This document shows positions 3,342-45,107 of a stretch of DNA of 64,000 nt, piece by piece; within the stretch, counting starts at the first letter, position 1; every line of letters starts with the position of its first letter. The position numbers were made by a program, and so were the translations under genes. Under the pieces are notes generated by a model that saw only the letters and a program-made list of their open reading frames with translations, was not told the origin of the DNA and made no database searches. This DNA comes from a virus, in the UHGV virus genome UHGV-1370141. One strand, written 5' to 3'.

Positions 3342-3581
3342 TCAATGGGCCCCGGATACCGCTAATAGGTGGATGGTGTACACCAAGTTTAGAGCGTAAG
3401 TCGTTGATGTCCCTGCCACCATTAATCCGAATACTGCTACCGCCTGCGCATACCGCGTCGTACGATGACACACACCGTGCGATGCACCGTATCGTTCTAT
3501 CGATTGGTAACTGTGTCTAATCATTTTGTACGTCGCGATCCACGAAAAGAACACGAGCAAATAGTAAATTGGAGCCATCAC
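3342..3581 (-). CDS. small membrane protein (79 aa, two hydrophobic segments), translationally coupled to the upstream terminase gene
   Basis: ATG overlaps terminase stop (ATGA); hydrophobic stretches APIYYLLVFFSWIATY and AVAVFGLMVAGTSTTYALNLV. Confidence 0.45.
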   Translation of the reverse strand: MMAPIYYLLVFFSWIATYKMIRHSYQSIERYGASHGVCHRTTRYAQAVAVFGLMVAGTSTTYALNLVYTIHLLAVSGAH

Positions 3582-21717: not shown

Positions 21718-24700
21718 TTATTTAAGTGTCGCTGGTAACTCAGGCACGGACTCGCCGTCGAGGATACGACCGATAAGAATCCCTGCTTGTTCACCCACAG
21801 CATTTGCGGTACCGATTCGTTGGATAGAACCTACGATACGTGCGTCGACAGAATCACGACCGAACAAAATGTCAATGTCATCGCCATCTTCTGTTTTGTT
21901 TTCCCCGTACATCACTTCTTGTACAGTGGTTTTCAGCTGGTTAGCAATAACCATCTTATCCGCTGCGGCCATTTCCACTTCGTGCGTAATAAAGAATCGA
22001 ACACAAAGCGAGTTAAAGGCTAACGGTACACCCTCTACACGGTAATCCCCATTAACACTCCCTGATACCGGATCGCCACGATTAACAGCCAATGCTGCTT
22101 TACGACGAATGCGATCGTATTTACGTACCAGTTCTGCCAGTGAAGGCGTCATGTCTTCGGTTTCACCGTGATATACGACTTCGATTTTATCCACGATACC
22201 ACGAACCCCAGCACGAGGCGCGTACGAACTTAAACTTTGCAACGTTTGTGCTGCTTCCTTACTAAAGGTACTCATATCCCCCGTAAGGTCGTCAGTAAAT
22301 GTGCATAGGATTGTGTCGACGTCAACGTGTTCCCCTTCGTTAACGATTTCCAGGAGCATCTGGTTGCTGTTAATCACCACTTCTTTCAGCTTAGTAACCT
22401 GCCCAACCATTTTCTTCGCGAACCGTTCAGAAATAGCATTGGAGTCTTCGATTACTTCTTCAGCTTCGATTAGAGCGACGGTAGCCAGCACCCCGTTTTT
22501 CCAGGAAACCTGAGTAGGGTCGTAGATATCGGGTTCAAAGTGTTGCTCGTTATAGGTGATGACTGCCCCGGCCGGGAGTTTGTCACCGGCTTTCCAGCGA
22601 GTCACCAGGGTGTGCGGATAGAAGGTACCTTCGTGGGGGCCGAACCAGCGCCCTAGAGGAAAGGCTTCTTTACTTCCATCTTCGTACGTAATTTCGATAT
22701 GGTCTTTAGACAGACCGGTGATTTTACCTGCTTTATCAATAACGCGTGCGTGTTTCACCGATGTACGGTGAGCGACAAATTTCTCCTGTTCGGTACGATA
22801 AGGGGTAGTGGTAGCGCCGTTGCAACTGGTGGCAGAACCTAACTGAATCCCAACGAAGTTTTGACGTTTAGCGTCGTCCATCAGGGTATCCGGCACGAGA
22901 CCGTCAATAAATGACAGAGTGTCGCTCGGCTTCAGTTTCTTTTCATCCCGTTTATAGGTTGTGCCGTCAACGGTATCAAAACGCGGGTTGTTGGTGGCGA
23001 AAGCAGTAATACCTACGTCACCGTTATCCACCGTGTTACCGGATACAATACCCAGGTCACTCGGTTGGAACTCACGCGTGTGATAAACCATTGTTTTACG
23101 GTTACGGCCACCCGTACCACCCATGGTGATAACGTCTTTCTCTTTAATCGACTGGATAGGGTTAGCACCCGGCGCTAACAGAACAGACGGGTCGGAGTTA
23201 ATTGCGCCCCAAATCATGTCCTGAGTAAGCTCGAACTTACGGTTACTGTTCGGTGCGTTGTTGTAGTTACGCATCGCCCTGACCATCGCAGTGTAGATGT
23301 GGTAGGAAATACGTTGGTTCCCTAAGAACATCATTTCATCACCGTTAATCTCCGGTAAAGAGTGGTCGGTTTGTAACAGTTCGTTAGAACGTTCCAATAG
23401 CCCGATAAAGGTTTCCGGTTCACCCATTTTCCTGAGGATACGTGCGTGCATGTCATCAACAAACGCGGCCCGCATTTGTTTCAGCTCGTTGATGTAGCGT
23501 GGAGTTAGCCCATCTGCATCACGTATTAAGTTCAGGTAAATGTCTTCGCGGTCGACTTCGGACTCGGTATAAGCTACCAGGTGTTTCAGGTACTTATCCA
23601 GACCGTGTAGAATCATTCGTTGCTGATCGTTATCACACGTTACCAGGAACTTACTGTCCTGGAGACGAATAATAGAATCGTACGTGCTCTTATCTACACG
23701 TTGGCCAACAGGGACGATTTCGTACTGAATACCGAAATGTTTAAGCATCCCTTGCAGACCTAAATAGAACGAGAAGATGAAGCCCAGTGAGAGCGATTTG
23801 CCCATCAGTGAAAGCTCGGTCATTTCTCTTGGCGCTTTCTGGCTACTGAAGCCAAGCACTTCCGAGATGGTACCCAGTGGTGTACACTCTTTACCCTTAA
23901 CGGTATAGAGCATGGACTTGGTATCCATCACCACAATAACTTCACTGCGCGGACGTTTCGCAACCGGCAACATCTCAACGTTGTTTGCGTCAGTAAGCTG
24001 TTCGTCATTAAAGAAGTTAACCGCTTCTTTATAATCGAAGTTCCACATATACCCGCCTGCATTGAAGCTGGCGATACGGCGTGCAATCTCCGTGTACTGA
24101 CGAGGAAGTTTCTCTGTAGGATCGAAAACGTTCGCGAGACGTGCGTCGGTGATCTCCGTGTTGGTCGGGTCTACGGCACGCGTGATAATCGCGTTCGTTA
24201 ACCAACGGCCGTAGTCGTTTGCGACTTTGTCACTACGACGTACGAAGTTTTTACCGTAAGCGGTAGTTAACGCTACGGTGTCTGGGGCGACCTTACGAAT
24301 CGGAACGTCTACACGCTGACGACGCATGGTGTATTCAACACCGTTTGCTACCCAGGTACCGTCTTCGGTTAAACCAGGGATAGAGAAACGCACTGTCGTC
24401 GGTTCACCACCAATCGGTTGAACACGCAGGGTGTGGTGTTCGATAGTTCCCGTAACGGAAACCTCTTTCTCGATCGTGTGGTTGTGAATAGCTAAACCAA
24501 GACGCTGCGAGCTGGCGACTGCTGCCAGCACGTCTTTACTCATCATGGTCTGGTTGTATTGTTTCACCATTTGGTCGGTGACGTTTTCTGCCCAACCTTC
24601 ATCCGTAACCAGTCGCTGGACTTTCTTCGGTTCCGCTTTCACGGCAATGTCTTTTTCGTGAATGGTTAATGCTTCACCGTAAGTCTCTTTCGGGTTGTAC

Positions 24701-25884
24701 GGGTTTGGTAACTGAACGAAACGTTTGGTCGAATCAGACAGGAATTGATACGCTTTGGAGCTTAAGCGGCCCGCCTCAGCCAGTTTCTGCGCTTCCTGTT
24801 TGATAATGTCATCGTGAGCAATCGTTTTTTCGATAACGATAGTCGTCGGCTTAACGTCTTCTTTCGGCTCCTCAATAACGAGGTCTTCTTTTTCATCGAA
24901 AGCGTTATCCGATTCAACCACAGCGTCGTTAACAACGTCTGTATCGTCAACGACGTCAACGGTATCCTCTTCGATGTCCTTAACAAAGATACGTTCATCA
25001 CCTTCCGGTGTCAGGAATTCAGCTTCGTAAGCATTAGACGGTGCTTGAGTCATTACACGCACTAACGTACGATAGAACATCCTGGCCATCTGGTCGTCAC
25101 TTAAACGGCCACCGGACGATTTACGCATCTTCTCCACGACACCCATGTTCATCGACGTAAAGCCGCCGTTGTGGGTGAAGATGAAGTTCATTCGAGACAG
25201 TTGCGTTAAGTCCATTCCCGCAAACAGAGAATCGGACTGTTTACCGTACGCCCAAGCGAACAGTTCCAATAACCACAGCAGGTTAAAATCCTGGAACTTT
25301 TCAATCTTGCTTTTAACACGATCGTTATACGTCGTTTGGAACTTCTGGAAAGACGGTAACGTTGACCCCAGCTCAATCACGAAGTAGTTCTGACGCATGT
25401 ATTCTTGCGTGTCGTATTTGAACTGGTTAGTCATTAACAGCTGGATGTTACGCAGTCTGTCGTACCAGGCTAGTTGAGTGTCTGGATAATAGTAGTGCGA
25501 TAACATCGGTGTATAGTTCTCAATAAGGAGAACTTTTAAGTCTTTACGAATCAGGTCATCTGAAGTCAGACGACGAATTGGACGGTTAGCGCGATGATAC
25601 GCAAAGATAGCACGTTCTTGCCCCTGCACAGGTTTGTTACGTGGATGCCCACTGATCCCTTCTTCGGGAAGTTTAAAGTGGTGGCGAATTTGTGCAGGTT
25701 TTTCCAACGGCTGGATGATTTCCAGCGTAGCAGGTGGCGCTAAGACCACCTGATCGAGATCCACGACGTGCAGTATGGAGCCTCGTGGTATCTGGAGCTT
25801 CTCGAGCGGGATAATCCTCGGATTACCAAACTCGTCTGTTTTACGCACAGAGAAGCGTTGGTTAAACTGTTTAATGAGCAGCAT
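21718..25884 (-). CDS. large protein (1388 aa) immediately downstream of the RNAP beta'-N gene; tentative second RNAP subunit, subunit assignment uncertain
   Basis: Adjacent and co-transcribed with 25888..27513; C-terminal block DKMVIANQLKTT...EVMYGENKTEDGDDIDILFG loosely resembles the beta-subunit GDKM...[20 protein letters not shown] region; acidic linker in middle. Confidence 0.3.
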   Translation of the reverse strand: MLLIKQFNQRFSVRKTDEFGNPRIIPLEKLQIPRGSILHVVDLDQVVLAPPATLEIIQPLEKPAQIRHHFKLPEEGISGHPRNKPVQGQERAIFAYHRANRPIRRLTSDDLIRKDLKVLLIENYTPMLSHYYYPDTQLAWYDRLRNIQLLMTNQFKYDTQEYMRQNYFVIELGSTLPSFQKFQTTYNDRVKSKIEKFQDFNLLWLLELFAWAYGKQSDSLFAGMDLTQLSRMNFIFTHNGGFTSMNMGVVEKMRKSSGGRLSDDQMARMFYRTLVRVMTQAPSNAYEAEFLTPEGDERIFVKDIEEDTVDVVDDTDVVNDAVVESDNAFDEKEDLVIEEPKEDVKPTTIVIEKTIAHDDIIKQEAQKLAEAGRLSSKAYQFLSDSTKRFVQLPNPYNPKETYGEALTIHEKDIAVKAEPKKVQRLVTDEGWAENVTDQMVKQYNQTMMSKDVLAAVASSQRLGLAIHNHTIEKEVSVTGTIEHHTLRVQPIGGEPTTVRFSIPGLTEDGTWVANGVEYTMRRQRVDVPIRKVAPDTVALTTAYGKNFVRRSDKVANDYGRWLTNAIITRAVDPTNTEITDARLANVFDPTEKLPRQYTEIARRIASFNAGGYMWNFDYKEAVNFFNDEQLTDANNVEMLPVAKRPRSEVIVVMDTKSMLYTVKGKECTPLGTISEVLGFSSQKAPREMTELSLMGKSLSLGFIFSFYLGLQGMLKHFGIQYEIVPVGQRVDKSTYDSIIRLQDSKFLVTCDNDQQRMILHGLDKYLKHLVAYTESEVDREDIYLNLIRDADGLTPRYINELKQMRAAFVDDMHARILRKMGEPETFIGLLERSNELLQTDHSLPEINGDEMMFLGNQRISYHIYTAMVRAMRNYNNAPNSNRKFELTQDMIWGAINSDPSVLLAPGANPIQSIKEKDVITMGGTGGRNRKTMVYHTREFQPSDLGIVSGNTVDNGDVGITAFATNNPRFDTVDGTTYKRDEKKLKPSDTLSFIDGLVPDTLMDDAKRQNFVGIQLGSATSCNGATTTPYRTEQEKFVAHRTSVKHARVIDKAGKITGLSKDHIEITYEDGSKEAFPLGRWFGPHEGTFYPHTLVTRWKAGDKLPAGAVITYNEQHFEPDIYDPTQVSWKNGVLATVALIEAEEVIEDSNAISERFAKKMVGQVTKLKEVVINSNQMLLEIVNEGEHVDVDTILCTFTDDLTGDMSTFSKEAAQTLQSLSSYAPRAGVRGIVDKIEVVYHGETEDMTPSLAELVRKYDRIRRKAALAVNRGDPVSGSVNGDYRVEGVPLAFNSLCVRFFITHEVEMAAADKMVIANQLKTTVQEVMYGENKTEDGDDIDILFGRDSVDARIVGSIQRIGTANAVGEQAGILIGRILDGESVPELPATLK

Positions 25885-25887
25885 TGA

Positions 25888-27513
25888 TTAGCCTTTTGGA
25901 TTCTTTAATAACGCTTGCGTCGCACGTTTAATCACGTTGTTGACAGGATTGATTTTGAAATTCCCGTCTGAATCGAACCAGTAGTTCTTCGAGTGTATCC
26001 AGTTACGGTTTTCCTCGAGTGCTTCTTGCGACATAGGCGCGTTAAGTGAACCGGTGTCACCATCGTAGTCACCCCCTAAGCCACCCAATCGTGACGGGTG
26101 CGGTGCCATCGACTCGACAAAGGTTGGAACCGACCTGTCAGGATAACTGATAGCTCCGTGTGGCTTTTCAGTCTCCCAGTCATCTTCCAGTTCTTTTAGG
26201 TATAAAGATGACGTGGTGGTCTCCAATCTTATGGTCGATGAGTACGTCGAGCCTCGACCGGTGACGGGATAACGTGTAACGAAACCGAAATAATTGTTCC
26301 ACAGTTCGTAACCCGATAAATAGAGTAATTCTACCAGGGTCATTCCGTGGACGTTTTTACGGTCAAACGTTTTAGGCAGTTCGTCGATATCGTAGAACAC
26401 CTTAAAATGTTTGTTGTCTTGGTAGACCAGTGCGACATAATGGGTATCGTTAATCATTAACGGTTGATGACGAAGCTCGCGAGCTTCCATCCGGTTAATT
26501 AATGTTTCGATGCCATCGTCCGTGGTAAAGGTGTCGTAAACACGACCCCCAACCTCCAAGAACTCACGTTTAAGCGTTTTGGTGTTCACGCCATAAAGGT
26601 TGCCATCGCCAGCACGAATGTTACCGAGGTAACGTTCACGTATCTGGTATTGCGCAACAGGTAGCAACGCTTTCAGACCCTGATACAAACCAATTTTGGT
26701 GTCGGTCGGTCGAATCGCATCCTCACGTCCCATGCATTTAGAGCCTGTGGAGAATGAGGACAACACGTTACGTGTCCCGTTCATCAGTTTACGCGACGTC
26801 ACTTTACGACGTTGGAAACCTCCTTTACCGTCCTGGATGTTAAAGAAGTACATCCAGATTTCGTTAAAGGTTTGTTGGAGTTTCCATCGTACAGGGTTCG
26901 TTAATTCAACCCGTGTAGCACGGTCAGGAATCGCCCTGGCCAAAGAAATCAAACGACGATATAACCCACCGATTTCCTCTTCCTGTTCCCTACCGTCTTG
27001 TCTAACCACCAAATCACGTAAACCCGCGGGTAATACGAGAACATAGCGGCTAAGACTCACGGGACGGAACTTCTCGAAGAAATCCACCGTTTCGTCACGT
27101 TGTAACGATTCGTTACGTCCGGGTTTTAAGTCGTTGTAGTGACTAAGGAAAAAGTTAAAACCGGTATCTGCGCCAGCGTCGCCAGGCAAAGCCGGTTCAA
27201 AATCTTTTTCTTTTTCGCTCCAGGTTGCGTAGCGTTTTCCAGAACAAATTTCTTCGTAGAGTTGTTTTAGTTGGAATAACGCCAAACACACCGTCGGCGA
27301 AATGATATCTAATTTAATATCAATGTAAGAAAACGTTGAGTCTCGGGCTTCACTTCCCGTAAGACCGAATATCTCCGTGGAGTACAACCCTTCAGGGTGA
27401 AAGTTTTTTGTCAACCCTTGAAAAGTATCTGTGGTCGTGACGGGTCGTAATCGCGACACAAGAGACTTGTTTACATTGAGCAGATAAAAGTCAACCCAAT
27501 TAAGTTTATTCAC
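25888..27513 (-). CDS. multisubunit RNA polymerase beta' subunit, N-terminal fragment (541 aa, split beta' as in phiKZ-like phages)
   Basis: Ordered beta' hallmark blocks: EIFG...ISP; VLVLPAGLRDLV...GGLYRRLI; GGFQRRKVTSRKLMNGTRNV; TRYPVTGRGS; catalytic GGDYDGD followed by NAPMSQEALEENR; GTG start with AGGAG SD. Confidence 0.75.
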   Translation of the reverse strand: MNKLNWVDFYLLNVNKSLVSRLRPVTTTDTFQGLTKNFHPEGLYSTEIFGLTGSEARDSTFSYIDIKLDIISPTVCLALFQLKQLYEEICSGKRYATWSEKEKDFEPALPGDAGADTGFNFFLSHYNDLKPGRNESLQRDETVDFFEKFRPVSLSRYVLVLPAGLRDLVVRQDGREQEEEIGGLYRRLISLARAIPDRATRVELTNPVRWKLQQTFNEIWMYFFNIQDGKGGFQRRKVTSRKLMNGTRNVLSSFSTGSKCMGREDAIRPTDTKIGLYQGLKALLPVAQYQIRERYLGNIRAGDGNLYGVNTKTLKREFLEVGGRVYDTFTTDDGIETLINRMEARELRHQPLMINDTHYVALVYQDNKHFKVFYDIDELPKTFDRKNVHGMTLVELLYLSGYELWNNYFGFVTRYPVTGRGSTYSSTIRLETTTSSLYLKELEDDWETEKPHGAISYPDRSVPTFVESMAPHPSRLGGLGGDYDGDTGSLNAPMSQEALEENRNWIHSKNYWFDSDGNFKINPVNNVIKRATQALLKNPKG

Positions 27514-34721: not shown

Positions 34722-36923
34722 GTGGACGCTAGAACAGTTAACGACTCAAGCTGGGTCAAAAACCTATTTAATGGCGCAGTCGATGGCCGAGATGAACGTT
34801 TCCTGGCCTTGCGCCGCTATTCCGGTGGTATGATGTCGTTTGAAGACACCACAGTTGGTGGTAGTAAAGCGATTAACACACCGCCCCAGTTTACACTTTT
34901 TGCAGACCCTTCCTCAACAGGCGCGTTTGCACAACCCGACGCGACTAAGAGCGGTACCGAGTCCCTTTATAATTCCTCAGCCGCAGGGTCTTATCGCTTA
35001 GGGACGTATTACTACGAAAGTATCAGCCAGAACTCATTTTACGTTCATTGCCGTTTCGGTAAACCGAAGTATCTGGGTATGGCTTCGTTCTTTGCGAACA
35101 TGTACGACTCTAACCTGGCGTATCTTGCACGTACAGGTGACTATCCAGGAATTATTCGAACAGCGGCATCGTATATCGGTGCGGCTGCTATTTGGGCGAC
35201 GGTGGGTACTGTGGCATTCGCGGTGATTCTGATTACACCGAGGATTCTTTCGGCAGCGCTGAATAAAGAAACGTCAAGATACTATTACGTTAAGCCCACA
35301 ATGCATCTGTACTTACGTGCAGTGCAAAACATCCTGAACACCCAGCTAATTTATCGTCGTTTAGTACCAACGGGTGTGTTAGGGACTTTTGCGTTGGGTT
35401 ACGATACCGAAAGTAAAGAAAATAGTTACCATAAAGATCGTAAAGAGTGGTATGAATCTTTGCCCGAAGTCTGGAAAGCGAACGGTGAGTTTGACATTTA
35501 CCGAATGATTAACCGTTACCAGACCTTGGCGAACTACCAGGCTAAAACTATCGACGCGATTCGTGTAGAATCCGGTGACGATGAAGAATTGTTTGCCAGT
35601 CGCTTACGTGCGTTTTACTATAATGCTACTTACAGCGATAACGTACGTCTAAAAGCAGAACAGTTCGAAGTCTCACTATACAACTTGGAAAAAGTTGCCA
35701 GAAGTGAAAAGGGGGGTTACGCTTCTCCGATACAGGATATTGACAGCCAGGAAGACGAACTCATCGGACAGATGAGTAATAGCCTGGTGGTGGGTGGTAC
35801 CGCTAATGAACTGCAAGAGCAAGCTGCACAAATCCAGTCAGAGCAGGAAAAAACCCGTCAGGCTATGGAGAAACGTGCGGCAGCTGCTAAGCAGTTGAAC
35901 TCTACGTTGGATGAAAAGAACCCGGAGGATCTTACTGAGGGCGATATTGTCGAAGTTCAAGATTGGATGAACAAAGGTAAAGATGAATCCAAAGTAGGAA
36001 CGTTCTTTAAAGAGTTTACCGATATGGTTGCGGATGTTGGCGATAACGTCCTGTCAGAGATTAAGAACGGTTCACAATGGGTTACTTGGCGTATTGACGG
36101 TAAAGACACCGTTTCGCGTTCGTTCTCTAACTCCACGAAAGAACCTGAGATTTCCGGGATGGTAAACTCCGCAACAGCAAAAGCGCGTTCGTTGGAGGTT
36201 AACCTGTCGGGTGGACAAACCGGTTTTAGTGCGGTCGATGCTTTAGTTTCCGGTATTAAGTCAGCGATGCGAGGCGTTGCAGACACCCTACATTTGACAG
36301 GGATAATGTCGTTGTACAACTCCTCGGTGATAGACTTCCCAGAAGTCTGGGATAGTTCTGACGCATCAGGAGACGACATTACTTTAACCATTCCTTTACG
36401 TTGTTGGTCGGGTAACGACCTGGATATTTTCCAGGATTTGTTAGTTCCGCTTTCGTTTTGGATTGCAGCAGTGTGTCCTCTGGCTACAGGTAAACAATCT
36501 TTTACTCACCCGTTCTATTTAGAGTGTTATTCACAAGGACGTTTTTCTTTCCGTAACGCGATGGTGACGTCGATGTCGTTACAGTTCGGTGTGGGTGGTT
36601 TAGGTTGGCGGCCAGGTGATTCCGTCCCACTGTCTTGCGACATCTCTGTTACTATTCGTGATTTGACTCGCGTTATGTACATGCCCATTGTTACTGACAC
36701 AGGTGTGTGGGATGATGATAACAAATTCAGTGAATTTATGGCGTGTTTAGGTGGTGCTACGTTGTACGAACGTACTAACGGTATTGCGCGTGCCAAGATT
36801 AATGCGAGCATCTGGGCACAAAACTGGGCATCTGCATGGTCACAGGGTAGTTTTATTAACTCGGCACTGGATGTTATCCCAGCACGCCAGATCGCGAACA
36901 TCTTCCTGCCGCAAGCACGTTAA
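34722..36923 (+). CDS. hypothetical virion protein (733 aa) with a hydrophobic segment
   Basis: GTG start with AAGAGG SD; hydrophobic IGAAAIWATVGTVAFAVILIT. Confidence 0.55.
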   Translation: MDARTVNDSSWVKNLFNGAVDGRDERFLALRRYSGGMMSFEDTTVGGSKAINTPPQFTLFADPSSTGAFAQPDATKSGTESLYNSSAAGSYRLGTYYYESISQNSFYVHCRFGKPKYLGMASFFANMYDSNLAYLARTGDYPGIIRTAASYIGAAAIWATVGTVAFAVILITPRILSAALNKETSRYYYVKPTMHLYLRAVQNILNTQLIYRRLVPTGVLGTFALGYDTESKENSYHKDRKEWYESLPEVWKANGEFDIYRMINRYQTLANYQAKTIDAIRVESGDDEELFASRLRAFYYNATYSDNVRLKAEQFEVSLYNLEKVARSEKGGYASPIQDIDSQEDELIGQMSNSLVVGGTANELQEQAAQIQSEQEKTRQAMEKRAAAAKQLNSTLDEKNPEDLTEGDIVEVQDWMNKGKDESKVGTFFKEFTDMVADVGDNVLSEIKNGSQWVTWRIDGKDTVSRSFSNSTKEPEISGMVNSATAKARSLEVNLSGGQTGFSAVDALVSGIKSAMRGVADTLHLTGIMSLYNSSVIDFPEVWDSSDASGDDITLTIPLRCWSGNDLDIFQDLLVPLSFWIAAVCPLATGKQSFTHPFYLECYSQGRFSFRNAMVTSMSLQFGVGGLGWRPGDSVPLSCDISVTIRDLTRVMYMPIVTDTGVWDDDNKFSEFMACLGGATLYERTNGIARAKINASIWAQNWASAWSQGSFINSALDVIPARQIANIFLPQAR

Positions 36924-36939
36924 TGTTTGAGAGGAAATA

Positions 36940-37503
36940 ATGGCTAATACGCTATTAGGTAAATCAGGAAAACAACTGGTTTATGAGTTATTAGTAAAAA
37001 AGAATCCAGGTTTGGTAGAGAAAGGTATTACAATCGATAAATTGAATTTCGGCACGCCGTCACATATTCCTGCGGTAGAAACACCAGAAACTCAATTTAC
37101 GCGATTAAATACTCAACTTAGCGTCCAGGGTATCATCGAGCAGAAAACATTTGGTAAAATTGACGTTATTTATCGTCGGTTGGATTTAGAGCACCTGTTA
37201 GGTGACTTTGTAGTTTCTGTTGCGGGTGTTAATGCGGCTACGGTATCTGAGGTACTACAGCTTTTTCGCACTAAGTACAATTTGCAGATTACGGATGACG
37301 AAGTTGAGAACCCAACAGCTGCACCAGACAGCAGAGATAAAACCATCATTATCATGAACGGGAGATCTTTGGCTTGGACAGGTCAGTTGGAAGTGTACTT
37401 AACTGAACTGCCATCTGACGGTAAGGATATTTCGAAGCTGATTAAAGTTACCGAACTTGACGGTTTGACGTATATCTCTTCTGGAATTGTTCCTGGCGCT
37501 TAA
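36940..37503 (+). CDS. hypothetical protein (187 aa)
   Basis: ATG with GAGAGG SD; terminator downstream. Confidence 0.55.
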   Translation: MANTLLGKSGKQLVYELLVKKNPGLVEKGITIDKLNFGTPSHIPAVETPETQFTRLNTQLSVQGIIEQKTFGKIDVIYRRLDLEHLLGDFVVSVAGVNAATVSEVLQLFRTKYNLQITDDEVENPTAAPDSRDKTIIIMNGRSLAWTGQLEVYLTELPSDGKDISKLIKVTELDGLTYISSGIVPGA

Positions 37504-37528
37504 AAAAAGAAAAAAAATAAGAAAGTTA

Positions 37529-37560
37529 ACCTACCTCCTTTCGGAGGTAGGTACTTTTAT
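37529..37560. terminator. bidirectional intrinsic terminator (stem acctacctcc / ggaggtaggt, loop tttcg)
   Basis: Same stem sequence as terminator at 13825..13851; flanking A- and T-runs. Confidence 0.65.
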
Positions 37561-38391
37561 TTATTTCGCCAAATCTGCTTCTTTTACAAAAATACCGTCA
37601 GCGTTCAGATAGCCTTTACGGTCTTTGATTTCGTGCCAGGCTAAAGAGAAGCAATGGCGAATGTCAAGACGATAGTAGAGAGCCAGTTTTGCAAGACGGT
37701 ACAAAGCCCAGTTAAGCTGATCGAAACCAGCATCGGAGCGAATAAATGCGGTAGCGAAGATTTCGGTAGCGTGGAGATACAGATGGTGCGGATACCCGTT
37801 GTCATCAAAATGTTCTTCAACGTCAGCGACATCATCCACCTGTAGCTGTAAACCGTGCTCGATGATCTCGGTGGTTGACATTTCTCCAGACAGTTTGTCT
37901 TTACCCAGTTCCAGGATGTTTACCAGAACCACTAACGCATCACCGATACCATCCATGATCAGTTCAGGTTTGTTTTTACTGATACCTGTTGCGATTTCAC
38001 CAAACTCTTCAAAGAATTTCGTGATTTGGGTTTCCAGTTTACCGTTATCGAGGATGCCGCGTTCTTTAGACCAGCCTTTAACATGTTCTGCACAGTTCGC
38101 AATAGAATAGACCGGAACCGATACGGTGTGCATTACTGTACCGTTATATTCGGCACCTGTAAGTTTAAGCGGCGCTTCAATCGTTTCGATGTCCAGTTCC
38201 TGATTACCGGTGTGGCGTTTACCTTCTACGCGAACACGGTTAGTACCAGGATTTACCCCGATGGTGTAGATAGCATCAAACTGAATCGCTTTCTCGTCCA
38301 TAGCGCGTAGTTGTGTGTTAACTTCGTCCAGGAAGTTACCTGGGTTAAGAACGATGTTGTAGATAGCGTTGATGTTAAAACGTTCGCCCAT
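37561..38391 (-). CDS. MazG-like nucleotide pyrophosphohydrolase domain protein (276 aa)
   Basis: C-terminal half has MazG-like helical pattern (EEFGEIATGISKNKPELIMDGIGDALVVLVNILELGKD) with acidic metal-binding residues. Confidence 0.4.
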   Translation of the reverse strand: MGERFNINAIYNIVLNPGNFLDEVNTQLRAMDEKAIQFDAIYTIGVNPGTNRVRVEGKRHTGNQELDIETIEAPLKLTGAEYNGTVMHTVSVPVYSIANCAEHVKGWSKERGILDNGKLETQITKFFEEFGEIATGISKNKPELIMDGIGDALVVLVNILELGKDKLSGEMSTTEIIEHGLQLQVDDVADVEEHFDDNGYPHHLYLHATEIFATAFIRSDAGFDQLNWALYRLAKLALYYRLDIRHCFSLAWHEIKDRKGYLNADGIFVKEADLAK

Positions 38392-38419
38392 TTTAAAACT
38401 CCATTAGATTAAACAAAAA

Positions 38420-38454
38420 AAGAATAAAGATTAGGGGTGCTACATAAGCACCCC
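38420..38454 (-). terminator. intrinsic terminator (stem ggggtgct / agcacccc, U-run on minus strand)
   Basis: 8-bp stem directly downstream of small ORF 38463..38606. Confidence 0.5.
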
Positions 38455-38462
38455 GTGAACTG

Positions 38463-38606
38463 TTAAATTTTGCAAGCCCCGCCTGAGCAGTTATCGTCTT
38501 CCGTAGTTGGGTCAGCACCCTTCTCTACGGTAGCTTCCGGGTCTAAGCCAGGGATTGCAAATTCGTCAGTTTCTTTAACGGTTTCTACTTTAACTTCTTC
38601 AGTCAT
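38463..38606 (-). CDS. small acidic peptide (47 aa) ending in Cys-containing CSGGACKI; translationally coupled to upstream small ORF
   Basis: Hand translation MTEEVKVETVKETDEFAIPGLDPEATVEKGADPTTEDDNCSGGACKI; ATG overlaps upstream TGA (ATGA); terminator follows. Confidence 0.35.
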   Translation of the reverse strand: MTEEVKVETVKETDEFAIPGLDPEATVEKGADPTTEDDNCSGGACKI

Positions 38607-38827
38607 TTTTTAGTTTCCAAATTTCTTACAAAGGGGTTAATAGTTTTGATTTTAAGGTTAGCGAACGGCGACAGAAGTTTCACCATCGGTGCTAGACCTG
38701 GCGGCGTCTCTTTATATCGCACGATGCGCACTTTCGATTTACCAGGACCCTTACGTACACGGTTGTAGCCAATAAAATATAGAGCACCTGTAAAGAATCT
38801 CAGGCTGTGAAATCGTGGTTTTTTCAT
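38603..38827 (-). CDS. small basic protein (74 aa)
   Basis: In ORF track; start overlaps stop of upstream 49-aa ORF (TGATG); shares RKGP.K motif with it. Confidence 0.4.
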   Translation of the reverse strand: MKKPRFHSLRFFTGALYFIGYNRVRKGPGKSKVRIVRYKETPPGLAPMVKLLSPFANLKIKTINPFVRNLETKK

Positions 38828-38976
38828 CAGACATCCCCAAAAGCCAGAAAGCGTTTACGACCCTTGTGTGGTCCTTTACGCCAGCGACTAGCGATAGTTT
38901 TACGATTTACTTTGCAACGGATTCTCTTATTCAGATTGATATACTTTATAGTAACTTTAATGACATCATTCGTCAT
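38827..38976 (-). CDS. small basic protein (49 aa; MTNDVIKVTIKYINLNKRIRCKVNRKTIASRWRKGPHKGRKRFLAFGDV)
   Basis: Hand translation; below 60-aa track threshold; GAGGG SD upstream; coupled to the 74-aa ORF. Confidence 0.35.
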   Translation of the reverse strand: MTNDVIKVTIKYINLNKRIRCKVNRKTIASRWRKGPHKGRKRFLAFGDV

Positions 38977-38997
38977 AAAGAATTCCCTCATCATTAA

Positions 38998-39444
38998 TTA
39001 ACCCATTAAATGGATTACAACGTCTTTAGTTACTGAGTTTGCAAGTAAGCGGAAGAACTTCATGTAACGGAACATGCTAAAGAAAACCCCAGCGTCATCT
39101 ACAATGACAAGGCTGTATTTTTCCTTTTCTGTACCCATTTGGTAACCGCTGATTTGTGTGATGTTTTCCGGTAAGTCTTCGAGACCCAAACGGAATAGCA
39201 CATCGTCCTCTAAGAACCCTTTTGGGCTAACGAACAACACTTTCCCTTTATGGTTCTTAGCTAACTCGACACCAAAGTCTGTAAGCCCCATCTGCCTACC
39301 TGTACCGTAGCGGATAGTACGAAATTCAGATAAGGCATTGGGACCATAACGATCGGTAAACGGATTATCTTTAGAATCCAGATCGGTTAAACCTTTTGAT
39401 AATTCTTCTACTACGATGTTATAGTTAACATGAGTTTTAGACAT
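38998..39444 (-). CDS. hypothetical protein (148 aa)
   Basis: ORF directly downstream of thymidylate synthase gene. Confidence 0.5.
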   Translation of the reverse strand: MSKTHVNYNIVVEELSKGLTDLDSKDNPFTDRYGPNALSEFRTIRYGTGRQMGLTDFGVELAKNHKGKVLFVSPKGFLEDDVLFRLGLEDLPENITQISGYQMGTEKEKYSLVIVDDAGVFFSMFRYMKFFRLLANSVTKDVVIHLMG

Positions 39445-39474
39445 TTTATCATACCTTTTTAATTAGGTGGTAAT

Positions 39475-40515
39475 TTATACTGCGACGGGGGCCGCAATAT
39501 GTGGATGAGCTTGATAACCAACTAATTCGAAGTCTTCGTATTTGTAATCGAAGATAGAATCCGGTTTACGTTTGATAACCAGTTTAGGTAACGGGTAAGG
39601 CTCACGTGTAAGTTGAAGTTTTGCTTGTTCCAGATGGTTAGAATACAGATGAACGTCTACACCACTATAAACCAACTCGTCTGGAACCATGTTCAGTTGT
39701 TGAGCAACGATGTATGTTAACAACGCGTACGAAGCGATGTTGAACGGTAAACCTAAGAATACGTCGTTTGATCGCATCAGGAAGAAACACGAAAGCTTAC
39801 GACGCGGAATACCTTCACGATCTAAAGTTTCATGAAGTCGTTCTTCATCATCAATATCTTCGTGTTTAATAAGCGGTGCGCTCGCAAATTTTTCCGGTTC
39901 GTTTACTTCGTACCATTCCAGTCTCTCAAGCAGTGACATTTCCGTTGTGTAGAATTGGAAGTAGTTGTGACACGGGTTAAGTGCCATATCGTCCAAGTCA
40001 CTTACGTTCCAGGCACTAACAATAATACGGCGGGAGTCAGGGTCTTCGAGAAGTTGTTGGATAACTTTGCTGATCTGGTCGTGAGATTTGCGATAAATAA
40101 CGATACTTTCTTCAGGGTTGTCCTTTGCAATAGTACCAACGTAGCGATAGCCTCGTTCTCTCAATACGTCTTTACTACGCTCGTCCCAAAGATAAACCAG
40201 TTTGGTATCCATCCATTCCCGCCACTGGTGTCCGTAGACAGGTCCTAATTCCCCTTCCGCATTCGCCCACTCGTTCCAGATTCTTACCCCATTCTCTTGC
40301 AGGTACTTCACGTTAGTGTCACCGTTCAAGAACCATAACAGTTCATGAATGATACTTTTCAGGTGAACCTTTTTCGTAGTAACTAATGGGAAACCTTCTT
40401 TCAGGTCAAAACGTAGTTGGCGACCAAATACAGAAAGTGTCCCTACACCTGTACGGTCTTTCTTAACAACGCCGTTATCCAGAATGTCTTGCATTAACGC
40501 TAAATACTGTTTCAT
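39475..40515 (-). CDS. thyA: thymidylate synthase (ThyA family) with two insertions, 346 aa
   Basis: MKQYL...[12 protein letters not shown]...FPLVTTKK...[12 protein letters not shown]; [13 protein letters not shown]; active-site [10 protein letters not shown]; [16 protein letters not shown]; [30 protein letters not shown]. Confidence 0.9.
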
Positions 40516-40823
40516 TAGATTTTGTCCTTTTCGAGTTCAGTTAAAATTTCAAATAGGTCTGCGTTGGATTGCAGTACGACTTCACTGCCTTCTGCTACAA
40601 CGGTAATTGAAGGCTTCTTACCACGTAGCAAGAACTCCCAACGCATTGTTCTTACGTGGCTGTCGAGTAACTGCTTTAATTTGTGGTTAACTTCGACTTC
40701 CAATTTGCCCAGTAACTGTGGTGTAATAGCTTCGCCTGAGTTTTTGTTATAAAGCGTACGCACTAAAGAACGTAAAGAATAGCCAATGCATTGCGAAATT
40801 GCCCAACCCGAATAGTTTTCCAT
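40515..40823 (-). CDS. hypothetical protein (102 aa)
   Basis: ORF overlapping thyA start by 1 nt. Confidence 0.5.
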
Positions 40824-40824
40824 G

Positions 40825-41370
40825 TTAATCCTTCAAAATGTCTTTAAGCTTTAGTTTTGTATAGAACGGAGAACCGCTTAGTTCTTCTGTCCAACTTATA
40901 CGTCCGTTCTGTAGAACCCGGTCGAAGATTAGGCCGTACATCTTTACAATTCTGGCCAATTGATAAAAGAGCGTCGTGAGGTGTAACCGACGCTCCATTT
41001 GTGCACGGGCGGTACAACTGCGCACCGCTTTGATAGCAAGTACCGCTTCTGGCATCAACGTAAGCGCGATTGACTCAGGATGTTCATTTTTCCATTTCTT
41101 AATGGCTAGTAGTCGGTGTAAAGATTTTTCAAGGGGACGTAAATCCCCGTTATTCATCACGTAAACCAAAGCAGCAATATCCCACAAGGCAATACCTACT
41201 GCTTTAGCAACAAACAACCCGTCCTGTGTTGTCGTGGACTCACAGACTTTGCCAATACTTCCGTAAACACGTGCAGTCCATGCGTCTGTCTGTTCGCCAG
41301 GTTTTATACCCGCGTTATCCAGAAAGTGTTTAAACGCATTAACATGATCAGTTAACTGTATTTGTTTCAT
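40825..41370 (-). CDS. hypothetical protein (181 aa)
   Basis: ORF. Confidence 0.5.
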   Translation of the reverse strand: MKQIQLTDHVNAFKHFLDNAGIKPGEQTDAWTARVYGSIGKVCESTTTQDGLFVAKAVGIALWDIAALVYVMNNGDLRPLEKSLHRLLAIKKWKNEHPESIALTLMPEAVLAIKAVRSCTARAQMERRLHLTTLFYQLARIVKMYGLIFDRVLQNGRISWTEELSGSPFYTKLKLKDILKD

Positions 41371-41384
41371 TTCCGATACCCGAT

Positions 41385-41849
41385 TTAGTCACGAGACTTT
41401 ATTTTAAGGTACGCAACCGCAGCTCCCATGATTGCAATACCGGCACCCCAACCTATCCTTTCTATTACACTCATATCGTCCCATCTTTTCTCTTCGTTAC
41501 GTCGTTTGGCCTCGTCTGCCCGTTCTCTCCACATCGCTTCGCGTTCCAGACAGCTGGGATTTATTTCCTCTTCACAACGACGTTTCCGTTCTTCTTCCCC
41601 AATCAGTTCTTCTAAATAGAGTCTCGTTTCTTCCACAGCTTGCTCATAGACGTCTATGCGATCGGGAAGAATTCTCCTGTGAGAGGCTTTGTTGCGAACG
41701 GAAGCAATCATGTGGAGTTTCCGTTCGTATTTTGGTTCGAGAAGATAGGCTATGCTTTTGGTCTTCTCATGAAGTCCACGACCAGTACCGCCGAGTTTTT
41801 CCACAAGTTCTTCTACAGAAATTGCAAGATCGAGAATATATCCACGCAT
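41385..41849 (-). CDS. hypothetical protein with C-terminal transmembrane helix (154 aa from ATG; track ORF 41385..41900 starts at a TTG)
   Basis: ATG at 41849 has GGAG SD 8 nt upstream; C-terminal IGWGAGIAIMGAAVAYL hydrophobic. Confidence 0.5.
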   Translation of the reverse strand: MRGYILDLAISVEELVEKLGGTGRGLHEKTKSIAYLLEPKYERKLHMIASVRNKASHRRILPDRIDVYEQAVEETRLYLEELIGEEERKRRCEEEINPSCLEREAMWRERADEAKRRNEEKRWDDMSVIERIGWGAGIAIMGAAVAYLKIKSRD

Positions 41850-41909
41850 AATTGTTTCTCCGCTTAAACGCAGTCTTGGGAGACATAAGTTTGTTCCCAA
41901 CTGTAAAAA

Positions 41910-42278
41910 TCATTTCAACAAAACAAGATGAATTTGGTATTCGTCATCCGCAGGAGAAGAATAGTCGCCGGTTTCAGGAAACGATAAATCCCCTAGTAGA
42001 CTGTGGAAGGATAATCCGTGTACAGCTTCAACTTTTCGTACAAGCGGAAAACCTGTTCTTTTAATCCAATTGTAATCGACAAACAAAACACCACCAGGAC
42101 TTCCCGAACCTGACCACACGCGAATGTCCACAGTCTTTCCTGAGAAGTTGGCAAGTACAGTGCGCAGTCCTAATAGCACATAACGGGGGAAGGGTACTTC
42201 AATAACTTGTTTTGGTAAAACAAATTCAGGGAATTTAAAACCGAAACCGTTGGGGGTATTAAAAAATTGAGCTTGCAT
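41910..42278 (-). CDS. hypothetical protein (122 aa)
   Basis: ORF. Confidence 0.5.
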   Translation of the reverse strand: MQAQFFNTPNGFGFKFPEFVLPKQVIEVPFPRYVLLGLRTVLANFSGKTVDIRVWSGSGSPGGVLFVDYNWIKRTGFPLVRKVEAVHGLSFHSLLGDLSFPETGDYSSPADDEYQIHLVLLK

Positions 42279-42299
42279 GGTAATTCTCCTTTAGGGTAA

Positions 42300-42336
42300 A
42301 AAATAAAAATACCCTACTCCCAGACAGGAGTAGGGT
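42300..42336 (-). terminator. intrinsic terminator (stem accctactcc / ggagtagggt, loop cagaca, U-run on minus strand)
   Basis: 10-bp perfect stem downstream of 42342..43001; identical stem reused at 61133..61158 and near 61750. Confidence 0.6.
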
Positions 42337-42341
42337 AGGTG

Positions 42342-43001
42342 TTACATACGGGTAACTGAATCCCAGTAATCACGAAGATATTCTTGGTCTTCAGGATCTT
42401 TTGGCGTAGCCGGAATATGGCCGTCAAACTCAAACGGAATCACGGACAACACATCCGCAATCTCGTAACGCTCGACTTCCAGTTCAACTTTCACCCAGTC
42501 ACCAACGCTGGTGCTACTACGCATCTCGGTGATAAGATCGTTAAAGTCACCTGAAACTTCAATGGCAGGGTGTCCGGTGGTGATTGTGAAAATATCAATA
42601 TCCCAATGCTTAGCCCCTTTATCGGCTAATTCACCCGGCTCTAAGTGAATACGTTTCACCAGGTGTGCCAAATAACCGTCTTTGTAAAAAGAGAGTGCGG
42701 AACTAATCCCGATATCCGAATTCTCTTCAACCTTTCCGTCCAGGAATTTACGCTTAAGCGTTAGCTGTGCCGTTCCGTCTTCTTTAATACGGATACGACG
42801 ACGCCCACCTTCTATCGGCATGAGAATGTCCATGAACATCTTGGCTTCTTGTGCGTGGAGCCAATCCCATCCCGCTTGCGTCGGTTTTACCCAAACGCAG
42901 TATTCCTTTTCGACTTCGTGTTTAATGGACTCACCAGCAACACGAATGATTTCTTCTTCCTGCGCTTTATCCAGCCGCGCTAGGGTATCGAACAATCCCA
43001 T
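42342..43001 (-). CDS. hypothetical protein (219 aa)
   Basis: ORF; start coupled to upstream stop. Confidence 0.55.
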   Translation of the reverse strand: MGLFDTLARLDKAQEEEIIRVAGESIKHEVEKEYCVWVKPTQAGWDWLHAQEAKMFMDILMPIEGGRRRIRIKEDGTAQLTLKRKFLDGKVEENSDIGISSALSFYKDGYLAHLVKRIHLEPGELADKGAKHWDIDIFTITTGHPAIEVSGDFNDLITEMRSSTSVGDWVKVELEVERYEIADVLSVIPFEFDGHIPATPKDPEDQEYLRDYWDSVTRM

Positions 43002-43822
43002 TAGATTAATCCCATACGTTCACTGACGTCCGTAATATCGAACGTCGAGTCGTTATAGTCGATGTTTTCTACAATAGAAATCACCAGATTAGGAAGCCAT
43101 TCAGAATGTAGTGGTGTAATCACCCGACCGTTCATGACGTAATAATGCAAGAACGGAAGATTCATCGAATGGCAGTAAGACAGGGTATTACCTAAACAAG
43201 ACCCGTCGTATTGCAATAGGTGCAACTTACGCAGCAGTGCATTCTTAAATGCACCAGTCGCGTAGCTACTAAACTCACCGGGACGGTAATCCGTTTTCCC
43301 GTAAATTGCCGCTTTTAATCGACGACCTAACTGAATACATTCCGTACCCGTTAACGTACGTAAACGAAGAATATCAGGAAATTCAGTCTCCAGACGTCCC
43401 ATCGTTTTAATCGAGTAACCCATGTGTAACATGTAGTCAACGATACGCAAGTAGTGATAGTAACCTTCCAACGTCAGGAACTGACCGTGTATCGTGTCAA
43501 ATTTTGACCCGTCGGGTTTCGCGTAGAAGTTACTGATCATCTTACCCACGGTAGTACGACCGTTGGAGTAAAAGTTGATGTGGTTCACCCCATCGGTAAA
43601 CGGGAGTTGTTCAGGTAAAGCACAAACATAGCCTAACCGTCTCAGGTATAGGACATAAGCAAGGCGCTCATCAGGCGTGAGTACAATGCTTGACGCGTTC
43701 ACGTAGGATTTAGAACGTAAATCGCCCGGCGCATAACCGAGCGTTAAAGCCAATGATTGAATGTCTTCACTTTGACTTTTGATTTTCTTTAATACGGAGC
43801 GCAGTAATTGTGGTTCGGACAT
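43001..43822 (-). CDS. hypothetical protein (273 aa from ATG at 43822; track ORF extends to 43864)
   Basis: In-frame ATG (residue 15) has AAGAGG SD overlapping upstream stop; upstream ATG lacks SD and overlaps the previous gene. Confidence 0.5.
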   Translation of the reverse strand: MSEPQLLRSVLKKIKSQSEDIQSLALTLGYAPGDLRSKSYVNASSIVLTPDERLAYVLYLRRLGYVCALPEQLPFTDGVNHINFYSNGRTTVGKMISNFYAKPDGSKFDTIHGQFLTLEGYYHYLRIVDYMLHMGYSIKTMGRLETEFPDILRLRTLTGTECIQLGRRLKAAIYGKTDYRPGEFSSYATGAFKNALLRKLHLLQYDGSCLGNTLSYCHSMNLPFLHYYVMNGRVITPLHSEWLPNLVISIVENIDYNDSTFDITDVSERMGLI

Positions 43823-43832
43823 ATCCGGCCTC

Positions 43833-45107
43833 TTAGATTGCAAAGTAGTCTTCCACGATTTCATCGGTAGACTGATAACTTACACTACCTGCCGCTAAAA
43901 CGTAGTTACGTTTTTCGGTGGTCATCAGCGCTTGTATCGCGTTAGCGCCTGCGTAAGTATAAAGTTTCAGTTCAGTGGTTTCGGGAGTAACGTTTTTCGT
44001 TTTATCCCATTTGGCATCCAGTGCTTTAAACAACGCTAACATTCGTGTCCCGTACGTACTAAAGCTCGTGCCGGTTTCCACACGCAAGTTAGCCATGATG
44101 TTTTGAATCACGGTTTCCGCAATCTGTTTGCCCTGACCTTCCTGAAGTTTGCCCAGGTAATACTCTGTTGAGTCCAAGTTGCCGGTAGCAGCAGCTTGAA
44201 TCATCAACTCCCCGTAAAGCGCCTCTTTTGCTTGATCGTCACTGATAGCCTGAATCATCGGGTCGATTTTTGCAGGCAATCCGTAACTGTTAAGTTTCGT
44301 AGACAGACCGTAGATCAACGCAGACGACGTGTTAATGTCTAACGCTGAAAAACTGTCACTGCCTTTGAAACTGTTAATCAAGTTGTCGATGGCTAAGAAA
44401 TCGTCAAGGTCTTTATAGCTGTCAAACGTGTGTTGTACGTCATCAATAACTGAGGTTATCTGGTAACGCATACTGTTGACTTCAGACATAAAGTTGTTGA
44501 CTTCATGACTGATTTCTGAAGGAAGCTTAGCCAGTTGACCTGCGATATTCAGCGTTCCTTCGAGACGCTTCTTCACGGAGGAGAAGTCAGTACCGATTCC
44601 TGACAGAAAAGAATCACTCAGCGACGAAAGGCTGTCCCAACCTTTGCCCAGTAAACTTCCTGAGTCACCGGGTGACAGATACCCTAGTGCTTTAAGCCCT
44701 TCCTCATTAACCTTTTTGAAAGGTTCTGAAACATCACGCTTCTGCGGATCGAGAACAGGTAGTGTCTCTTTAGTGTTAGAAGCAAACCCAGGAACTTTTT
44801 GTCCTGGGGAAACACCGGAGGTGGAGCTGCCTGCTGTTTTGGTACCCCCTACGCTGGCAATGTCACTACCACCGAACAGGTTACCGATTTTTGAGGTCAG
44901 TTCACTTCCACCGCTGATGAGTTTGTTAAAGGTTTCACCAGCACGATCGGAAAGCTGACTGACTTTATCTACGGTATTCTGAATGCCACGTTCGGCGTTC
45001 TCTACCGTAGATTGTACTCGGTTAACCGCATTCTTCGCGGTATTAACCGAGTTGTCGATAGCCGATTGACCTTTGTTAATCTGGCCGGTTATCTGATCGA
45101 GTTTCAT
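43833..45107 (-). CDS. hypothetical protein (424 aa), Ser/Gly-rich with predicted coiled-coil N-terminus; possibly structural
   Basis: ORF; low-complexity S/G-rich segments. Confidence 0.55.
   Translation of the reverse strand: MKLDQITGQINKGQSAIDNSVNTAKNAVNRVQSTVENAERGIQNTVDKVSQLSDRAGETFNKLISGGSELTSKIGNLFGGSDIASVGGTKTAGSSTSGVSPGQKVPGFASNTKETLPVLDPQKRDVSEPFKKVNEEGLKALGYLSPGDSGSLLGKGWDSLSSLSDSFLSGIGTDFSSVKKRLEGTLNIAGQLAKLPSEISHEVNNFMSEVNSMRYQITSVIDDVQHTFDSYKDLDDFLAIDNLINSFKGSDSFSALDINTSSALIYGLSTKLNSYGLPAKIDPMIQAISDDQAKEALYGELMIQAAATGNLDSTEYYLGKLQEGQGKQIAETVIQNIMANLRVETGTSFSTYGTRMLALFKALDAKWDKTKNVTPETTELKLYTYAGANAIQALMTTEKRNYVLAAGSVSYQSTDEIVEDYFAI

Follow-up and report, generated by a model that had tools for sequence, protein, structure and literature searches.

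Two insertions, predicted to be folded, in the thymidylate synthase of an apparent phiKZ-like jumbo phage are hallmarks of a large clade of phage enzymes

The window analyzed here is a stretch of 64,000 nucleotides of the virus genome UHGV-1370141. At 39475–40515, it contains an ORF with an ATG start whose product has 346 amino acids, according to the ORF list of the window. The ORF lies on the minus strand, and translating the plus strand of this interval gives stops throughout. The preliminary description of this locus had the ORF and its insertions right but the strand wrong. The features of the locus are as follows:

39475..40515, minus strand: thyA, thymidylate synthase, 346 codons plus stop (ORF list, Pfam PF00303, NCBIfam)
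40084..40209, minus strand: insertion B, residues 103–144, which expands the loop at E. coli 103–108 (translation, alignment gap)
40027..40032, minus strand: codons of Arg162-Arg163, equivalent to E. coli R126/R127 (residue map)
39970..39972, minus strand: codon of the catalytic Cys182, equivalent to E. coli C146, in the motif NPCHN (translation, residue map)
39802..39942, minus strand: insertion C, residues 192–238, a predicted three-helix module at the β-hairpin turn after the catalytic Cys (translation, alignment gap)

The product, termed window ThyA in the following, has the thymidylate synthase (TS) fold, and PF00303 aligns over its entire profile (positions 1–266 of 266) to residues 2–346 with E = 1.9e-109 and 365 bits (cut-off 24.3). 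The protein passes the cut-offs of three NCBIfam ThyA equivalogs: NF002499 (410.3 against 405), NF002497 (397.2 against 327), and TIGR03284 (344 against 108). Across the 264 positions of E. coli ThyA, the identity amounts to 65%, and 24 of the 27 key residues compared are identical—the differing ones being C50V, Q165M, and the C-terminal I264V. Kept in E. coli numbering are R21, E58, I79, W80, W83, Y94, R126/R127, C146, H147, R166, S167, D169, L172, F176, N177, H207, and Y209. In the numbering of window ThyA, the catalytic set comprises C182 (C146 in E. coli), H183 (H147), E58, and Y94; the dUMP phosphate-site set comprises R21, R248 (R166), S249 (S167), and R162/R163 (R126/R127); and the folate-site residues are I79, W80, W83, D251, L254, and F258, all of which are present. 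In TS, R126' and R127' bind the dUMP phosphate in the site of the partner subunit, and Asn177 confers specificity for uracil rather than cytosine; the counterpart of the latter is N259. The notable change among the key residues is that of Q165 to Met, in a strand that reads LSCQLYQRS in E. coli and LSCFFLMRS in window ThyA. The C-terminus reads P-V-A-V versus P-V-A-I in E. coli. Family cut-offs and catalytic residues alike agree with the preliminary description in naming the gene a thymidylate synthase. As judged by its residues, the gene apparently encodes a catalytically complete ThyA converting dUMP and methylene-tetrahydrofolate to dTMP, and the conserved interface strands and cross-subunit arginines suggest that the enzyme forms a homodimer with dTMP-forming activity. 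The chemistry is almost certainly unaltered by the insertions.

The HMMER alignment of window ThyA to PDB chains of E. coli ThyA falls into three blocks: residues 1–102, 145–191, and 239–346 of the query are matched to E. coli residues 1–102, 109–155, and 157–264. Insertion B hence has 42 residues (103–144) in place of six E. coli residues, a net gain of 36, and insertion C has 47 residues (192–238) in place of a single E. coli residue, a net gain of 46. Both are in frame. The two sites are those at which the preliminary description had seen extra residues relative to E. coli; its counts of about 30 and about 40—the latter with 50 residues quoted—were slightly low. It had also called the second segment highly acidic, which is correct for the window protein (15 D/E versus 7 K/R, net charge −8) and does not extend to the homologues, among which the charge ranges from −8 to +1.

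An AlphaFold2 model of window ThyA, based on an alignment of 44 sequences, was obtained with a pLDDT of 94.3 and a pTM of 0.92, and both insertions are structured in it. Insertion B features a strand (101–108), a helix (112–120), and two further strands (124–129 and 138–145), and insertion C consists of three helices (195–205, 207–212, and 224–233). The confidence is lower within insertion C, with a mean pLDDT of 67 for residues 211–220 and of 83 for residues 221–230. The model superimposes with a TM-score of 0.92 on the BFVD model of 201phi2-1 TS and of 0.74 on E. coli TS; the insertion folds therefore appear to be common to window ThyA and the 201phi2-1 enzyme. Searches with the isolated segments were uninformative: phmmer against the PDB returned only chance WD40 matches for B (E of about 1) and none for C, and Pfam assigned no meaningful domain to either segment. 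A profile of the insertion-C region matched TS chains of the PDB at its flanks only, and no solved TS with insertion C was retrieved by it. Because the two segments are in frame, common to many relatives, and modelled as folded, they are taken to be real, folded parts of the predicted protein and not products of chance or sequencing error.

Insertion C begins 10 residues past Cys182, where a hairpin turn joins the strand of Cys182 to that of Arg248/Ser249. Cys182 and Arg248/Ser249 mark the end of this hairpin that lies in the active site of the same subunit, and the turn carrying insertion C is therefore its far end. The preliminary description had placed the segment right after the active-site cysteine and next to the catalytic core, which is true of the linear sequence but not of the fold. 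R175/R176 of human TS are equivalent to E. coli R126/R127, which reach into the phosphate site of the partner. Tyr189, which precedes insertion C, corresponds to Y202 of human TS. In crystal structures of human TS, Y202 is located at the perimeter of the monomer–monomer interface, where it stacks against F59' of the other subunit (PMC9831607), and structures of the Y202C variant feature a modified Cys202 with water-mediated contacts to D173/R175 of its own subunit and to K47'/T55'/D254' of the partner (PMC9831607). By homology to the human and E. coli structures—the window protein itself was modelled as a monomer—insertion C would emerge from the fold at the rim of the dimer interface, adjacent to the Arg162/163 loop of its own subunit and the start of the first β-strand of the partner. 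Its root would accordingly lie close to the active site of the partner, on the phosphate side, and not to its own site.

Both insertions are more variable than the remainder of the protein. Among 120 close relatives, the entropy is 0.62 for B, 0.28 for C, and 0.11 for the core, and indels of 2 and 5 amino acids occur. Compared with the gene of an Enterobacter ludwigii element, which is 90% identical, pN/pS is 0.18 for B, 0.20 for C, and 0.09 for the core, values that stem from one pair with few substitutions. Ratios of about 0.2 next to 0.09 for the core suggest that the insertions are under purifying selection weaker than that on the core. In ten divergent enzymes bearing insertion C, P237 and R239 do not vary and R198 hardly does; conservation of these three positions extends from chimalliviruses to phage-plasmids and a rhizobiophage. 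A T-R-E-L...E-R-L motif recurs in the region of insertion C among divergent ThyAs. The net charge of insertion C is −8 in the window protein, +1 in phiEaH2, and 0 in RHph_N28_1.

A tblastn search against 50,697 phage records yielded full-length matches with 59–64% identity to ThyA of jumbo phages: SPN3US-like Salmonella phages, Goslar, Proteus phage 7, and many Erwinia jumbo phages. In the six of these phage enzymes that were aligned (SPN3US, Goslar, Asesino, Parshik, phiEaH2, and SNUABM_38), insertions B and C are found at matching positions. The remainder of the window is of the same kind. It encodes split multisubunit RNA polymerase β subunits of the phiKZ-like type (21718–27513), a tail sheath protein (10872–12929), a large terminase (3578–5686), and a protein of 2377 amino acids with a transglycosylase, and a gene for a MazG-like pyrophosphatase lies directly downstream of thyA. 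Scanning approximately 20 of the window ORFs revealed no DHFR gene. RNA polymerase, sheath, terminase, and ThyA identify the source of the window, at the level of sequence, as a phiKZ-like (chimallivirus-type) jumbo phage. Window ThyA carries B and C at the sites of the jumbo-phage ThyA clade, with the motifs of that clade and in a phiKZ-like genome context.

The wider extent of this family was assessed with 1.84 billion cluster representatives (clusters at ≤50% identity), from which the best 150 were taken; 117 of these are near-full-length with respect to E. coli ThyA. Among these best matches, 87 of the 117 have at least 15 extra amino acids at site C (median 42, range 18–79) and 56 of the 117 have at least 15 at site B; 46 of the 117 have both insertions, 19 have C only, and 10 have B only. 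The selection is biased to the architecture of the query and nevertheless displays a large and diverse family. Ten insertion-bearing representatives were looked up, and all are Logan or ENA metagenome proteins. All six of the metagenomic contigs with insertion C that were inspected look phage-derived, having many small ORFs without a Pfam match; individual C-bearing contigs carry RNR, clamp loader, primase, terminase, RNA polymerase fragments, or DHFR, and in several C-bearing loci the DHFR gene adjoins thyA. B and C are hallmarks of a large clade of phage ThyAs and are not peculiar to the gene in the window.

Cellular genomes were scanned in two ways, both limited by the motif used. A scan of 185,579 species-representative genomes with the insertion-C profile confirmed none among the 600 pattern candidates listed, a weak negative given that the pattern was derived from the conserved flank. 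A DNA pattern for F-Q-F-Y-T-R/S-E-L occurs at 62 sites in the same 185,579 genomes, 59 of which are not ThyA: They are mostly GGDEF-EAL signalling proteins with a chance peptide, the rest being short spurious ORFs. Two of the 62 sites fall in a ThyA that has the motif; each lies on a short MAG contig, and one of these contigs has ambiguous PHROG matches. A third ORF scores as ThyA-like, with the motif upstream of its TS part. Hence, no chromosomal ThyA with insertion C was found in these two scans, and insertion C is likely restricted to phages. Literature searches returned no paper describing insertion B or C.

Taken together, the account that probably holds is that of a complete phage ThyA with two folded modules typical of its clade, of which C is seated at the rim of the dimer and neither alters the chemistry. 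Insertion C would enlarge or buttress the dimer interface together with the cross-subunit arginine loop, and/or present a surface to phage-specific partners. Insertion B would be a peripheral decoration—an enlarged variable loop at E. coli 103–108, as in Burkholderia-type enzymes—and both would be retained under purifying selection weaker than that on the core. A role of insertion C at the dimer rim, whether as buttress or for docking, is favoured with low confidence. Against a functional role stand the varying lengths (18–79 amino acids for C), the ability of each insertion to be absent, and the acidity of C, which is not conserved; wide length variation and independent absence fit a tolerated decoration as well as they fit function. 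phiKZ is only weakly affected by knock-down of gp235 (PMC12571901), and in nucleus-forming phages, the TS remains cytoplasmic (bioRxiv 10.1101/2021.04.26.441357). Since phages without a nucleus carry insertion C as well, a nucleus-related role is unlikely.

The serious rival to a role at the dimer rim is that B and C are neutral: tolerated surface expansions at permissive loops, inherited within the phage lineage. The greater variability of the insertions compared with the core, the small indels among close relatives, and the large length variation with B and C present or absent independently of each other are all in line with this, and other insertions in TS are known to be tolerated, such as that of the L. 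casei/E. faecalis type at another site. Neutrality sits less well with insertions that are kept across phage lineages whose ThyAs are merely about 35–47% identical to window ThyA, with an invariant P237 and R239, a nearly invariant R198, and a T-R-E-L...E-R-L motif that recurs in or at the edge of C, as well as with the confident fold prediction and a pN/pS of about 0.2; overall, we regard it as somewhat unlikely. The preliminary description had proposed that the acidic insertion could mediate phage-specific interactions. In this view, C would be a docking surface for partners such as DHFR or other enzymes of a dNTP-synthesising complex; a complex of this kind has been proposed for T4. The surface-exposed position of insertion C, its occurrence in phage-like contexts or on short MAG contigs only (in limited scans), the placement of thyA beside a DHFR gene in several C-bearing loci, and the net charge of −8 in the window protein point in this direction. 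However, the charge is not conserved, being +1 in phiEaH2 and 0 in RHph_N28_1, insertion C is found in unrelated phage groups with differing gene sets, and the approximately 20 window ORFs scanned include no DHFR gene—which leaves docking as the purpose of C distinctly unlikely.

Two further explanations concern the identity of the gene product itself. The extra segments might be absent from the mature enzyme, as an intron, an intein, a remnant of a homing endonuclease, or an artefact of annotation or sequencing. Mobile introns are known to target phage thyA genes, and in several phiKZ-like phages thyA is split by a segment encoding a homing endonuclease. But the segments in the window comprise 42 and 47 codons, far below the size of an intein (at least 130 amino acids), are in frame and conserved at the level of protein, and fold with the core in the model; an artefact is at odds with the recurrence of the B/C layout in hundreds of independent assemblies. 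Rfam matched no family in the entire 64,000-nt window, which argues against an intron. An intein or group I intron in thyA was rejected on these grounds: no Rfam match, no Pfam domain, and segments of 42 and 47 amino acids. The chance that the segments are missing from the enzyme is close to nil. The protein might also be a hydroxymethylase that acts on dCMP or dUMP and yields a modified base. Phage enzymes of this kind belong to the TS superfamily, those acting on dCMP having Asp in place of Asn177, and divergent homologues in fHe-Yen9-02 and pEa_SNUABM_32 carry a segment resembling insertion B. This is very improbable for a protein with 65% identity to E. coli ThyA that passes the NCBIfam ThyA equivalog cut-offs and keeps Asn259 (N177), the folate-site residues, and the C-terminal P-V-A-V. 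Either kind of hydroxymethylase was rejected for window ThyA, in which Asn259 is retained and the closing C-terminus is present.

Within the preferred account of a complete ThyA with two clade modules, a bolder reading is that insertion C is a phage-invented inter-subunit element that sits beside the Arg162/163 loop and reaches over the dUMP-phosphate site of the partner. This is unlikely as it stands, and would have consequences if true: C could make the dimer more stable, change the regulation or half-of-the-sites behaviour of the enzyme, or dock it to other phage nucleotide enzymes. The phage TS would then possess a property that cellular TS lacks, with R198, P237, and R239 as functional contacts. 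Few enzymes have been studied as thoroughly as TS, which is also a drug target and whose half-of-the-sites behaviour hinges on the dimer interface and the cross-subunit arginine loop. Insertion C would place a widespread three-helix module, seen in phage contexts, at the rim of this very interface. The clade is already present in sequence databases; insertion B is visible in a bacterial crystal structure, and insertion C is uncharacterised. From its sequence, thyA of the window is best regarded as encoding an ordinary jumbo-phage enzyme of nucleotide supply, and the insertions as traits of its lineage, not a novelty of this genome.

E. coli ThyA (264 amino acids; PDB 2TSC and 1AOB) features the same fold as window ThyA without either insertion. 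The ThyAs of L. casei, E. faecalis, and S. aureus have the classical insertion of 50 amino acids at approximately E. coli 87–89 and no insertion C. Window ThyA lacks this classical insertion: It has no gap at E. coli 87–89 and scores 317 with NF002496, below the cut-off of 325. T2 td, a T4-type enzyme of 286 amino acids, has the catalytic residues of window ThyA and neither B nor C; its extra residues are located after helix C, at approximately residue 87, and near the C-terminus. The comparison with E. coli, T4-type, and L. casei-type enzymes suggested in the preliminary description thus comes out in its favour: Neither E. coli ThyA nor the T2 enzyme contains B or C, and the L. casei type is without C and has its own extra segment elsewhere, at about E. 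coli 87–89.

The Burkholderia type of bacterial ThyA shares insertion B. A profile of the insertion-B region built from twelve phage enzymes aligns unbroken to residues 105–184 of the Burkholderia thailandensis enzyme 3V8H, whereas E. coli-type PDB chains match it at the two flanks only. Whole-enzyme queries with RHph_N28_1 and pKPHS1 did not retrieve 3V8H, but the insertion-B-region profile did. In several B-bearing phage enzymes, the best matches to NF010393 (PRK13821) span the B region in a single stretch. Window ThyA carries the trait of this type—an insertion of about 40 amino acids between W-R-x-W and D-Q-I, which is site B—and is 38% identical to 3V8H, a member of the NF010393/PRK13821 class; it lies outside the Burkholderia-type subfamily itself, since it reaches 217.2 bits with NF010393 against an equivalog cut-off of 576 bits. 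3V8H is absent among the chains matching the insertion-C-region profile. Judging from the profile alignment, insertion B is homologous to the corresponding segment of the Burkholderia-type bacterial ThyA 3V8H. The preliminary description had named the presence of its segments in ordinary bacterial ThyA as what would speak against it; for insertion B, this is the case in part, since the segment occurs in one bacterial class (3V8H) and not in the E. coli type.

Among phage enzymes, the two insertions are combined in several ways. The ThyA of Klebsiella jumbo phage K64-1 has B and lacks C, and that of Rhizobium phage RHph_N28_1 has a clear insertion C and a divergent B region. The SSU5-like phage-plasmid pKPHS1 of K. 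pneumoniae encodes a ThyA with a B of approximately 37 and a C of approximately 58 amino acids; it is about 38% identical to window ThyA and has a divergent strand after the Cys (PCHFVLSVW). This thyA sits amid RNR and DHFR genes, and the SSU5-like element is not a nucleus-forming phage. Plasmids of about 110 kb with a thyA of the pKPHS1-like span number in the hundreds in Klebsiella, E. coli, Salmonella, and relatives. The nucleus-forming Pseudomonas phages feature the largest enzymes: phiKZ gp235, 201phi2-1 gp350, and PhiPA3 gp274 (457–488 amino acids) have both B and C, and in addition, a third insertion of about 100 amino acids near E. coli residue 87. Insertion C is longer in phiKZ and PhiPA3 than in window ThyA. 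The 201phi2-1 enzyme is 47% identical to window ThyA. The enzymes of the nucleus-forming phages and window ThyA have motifs in common at both sites: W-x-D-x-K/R-x-V...R-G-Y/F...D-Q-I at site B, and F-Q-F-Y/W-T-R-E-L-x-x-x-E-R...I-P-x-R-x-L/I-S-C at site C.

The ThyA protein of the window phage deviates from E. coli ThyA in a normally well conserved strand, and further features were noted on either side of thyA:

Window 37561-38391, (-) strand: MazG-like nucleotide pyrophosphohydrolase gene, two genes downstream of thyA.
Window 39760-39786, (-) strand: variant strand LSCFFLMRS, residues 244-252 of ThyA.
Window 40515-41370, (-) strand: two ORFs of 181 and 102 aa, directly upstream of thyA.

The two upstream ORFs correspond to the N-terminal and C-terminal portions of a single PHROG family, phrog_10269 (299 positions), and the equivalent site in the jumbo phage SPN3US is occupied by one 289-aa gene instead. 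Since the two-ORF layout recurs in the Enterobacter ludwigii element described below, a genuine split of the gene is probable, and a sequencing error is the less likely explanation. On the other side, a gap of approximately 600 bp (38392-38997) lies between the MazG-like gene and its neighbor, in which all ORFs are at most 74 aa long and which has no match in Rfam.

A search with window 36000-44000 found no close DNA relative of the phage among 50,697 phage records—the single match has 78% identity over 6% of a 4-kb query. Elements with 94% DNA identity are instead deposited as circular "plasmids" in complete bacterial genomes, namely those of E. coli 98232 (NZ_CP173450.1; 221,873 bp) and E. 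ludwigii (NZ_CP134650.1; 222,441 bp). In addition, ThyA proteins near-identical to that of the window are encoded in assemblies of Salmonella, Shigella, and E. coli, on contigs that are 220-226 kb long. It looks as if these isolates harbor a persisting phiKZ-like jumbo phage, perhaps in a carrier state or as a pseudolysogen.

The peptide F-Q-F-Y-T-[RS]-E-L forms the start of insertion C (residues 192-238) in many phage ThyAs. It is also a conserved motif of long bacterial proteins, in the context AMY-x-AK-x-x-GRN-x-FQFYT-x-EL, which we take by eye to be GGDEF-EAL signaling proteins. Such presumed GGDEF-EAL proteins make up most of the non-ThyA matches (59 of 62) in the scan of species-representative genomes. 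The shared peptide is a coincidence, by which motif searches would be misled.

In several phiKZ-like Pseudomonas phages (e.g., PP456879.1, AP019418.1, MF805716.1, and OP310983.1), the thyA match falls into two pieces spanning ~2.46-2.55 kb compared with 1.46 kb. The annotation places a homing endonuclease between them—of the GIY-YIG type in SL2—which points to thyA being interrupted by a mobile intervening sequence in some strains.

The TS-superfamily proteins of two jumbo phages, Yersinia phage fHe-Yen9-02 and Erwinia phage pEa_SNUABM_32, are divergent (25.9% and 28.2% identity). In both, the N-terminus is extended, the insertion-B-like segment is longer, site C bears a short insertion, and an additional segment lies close to the C-terminus. 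Several ligand-site residues are altered (G23E, H51R, A263T, and the C-terminal Lys); hence, judged by sequence, these proteins may be other than plain dTMP synthases.

Within the variant strand, which reads LSCQLYQRS in its conserved form, Gln165 of E. coli ThyA is replaced by Met247. The fHe-Yen9-02 homologue likewise carries Met at this position, Goslar ThyA features Ala, and RHph_N28_1 ThyA Ile, whereas the ThyAs of SPN3US, phiKZ, and pKPHS1 retain Gln.
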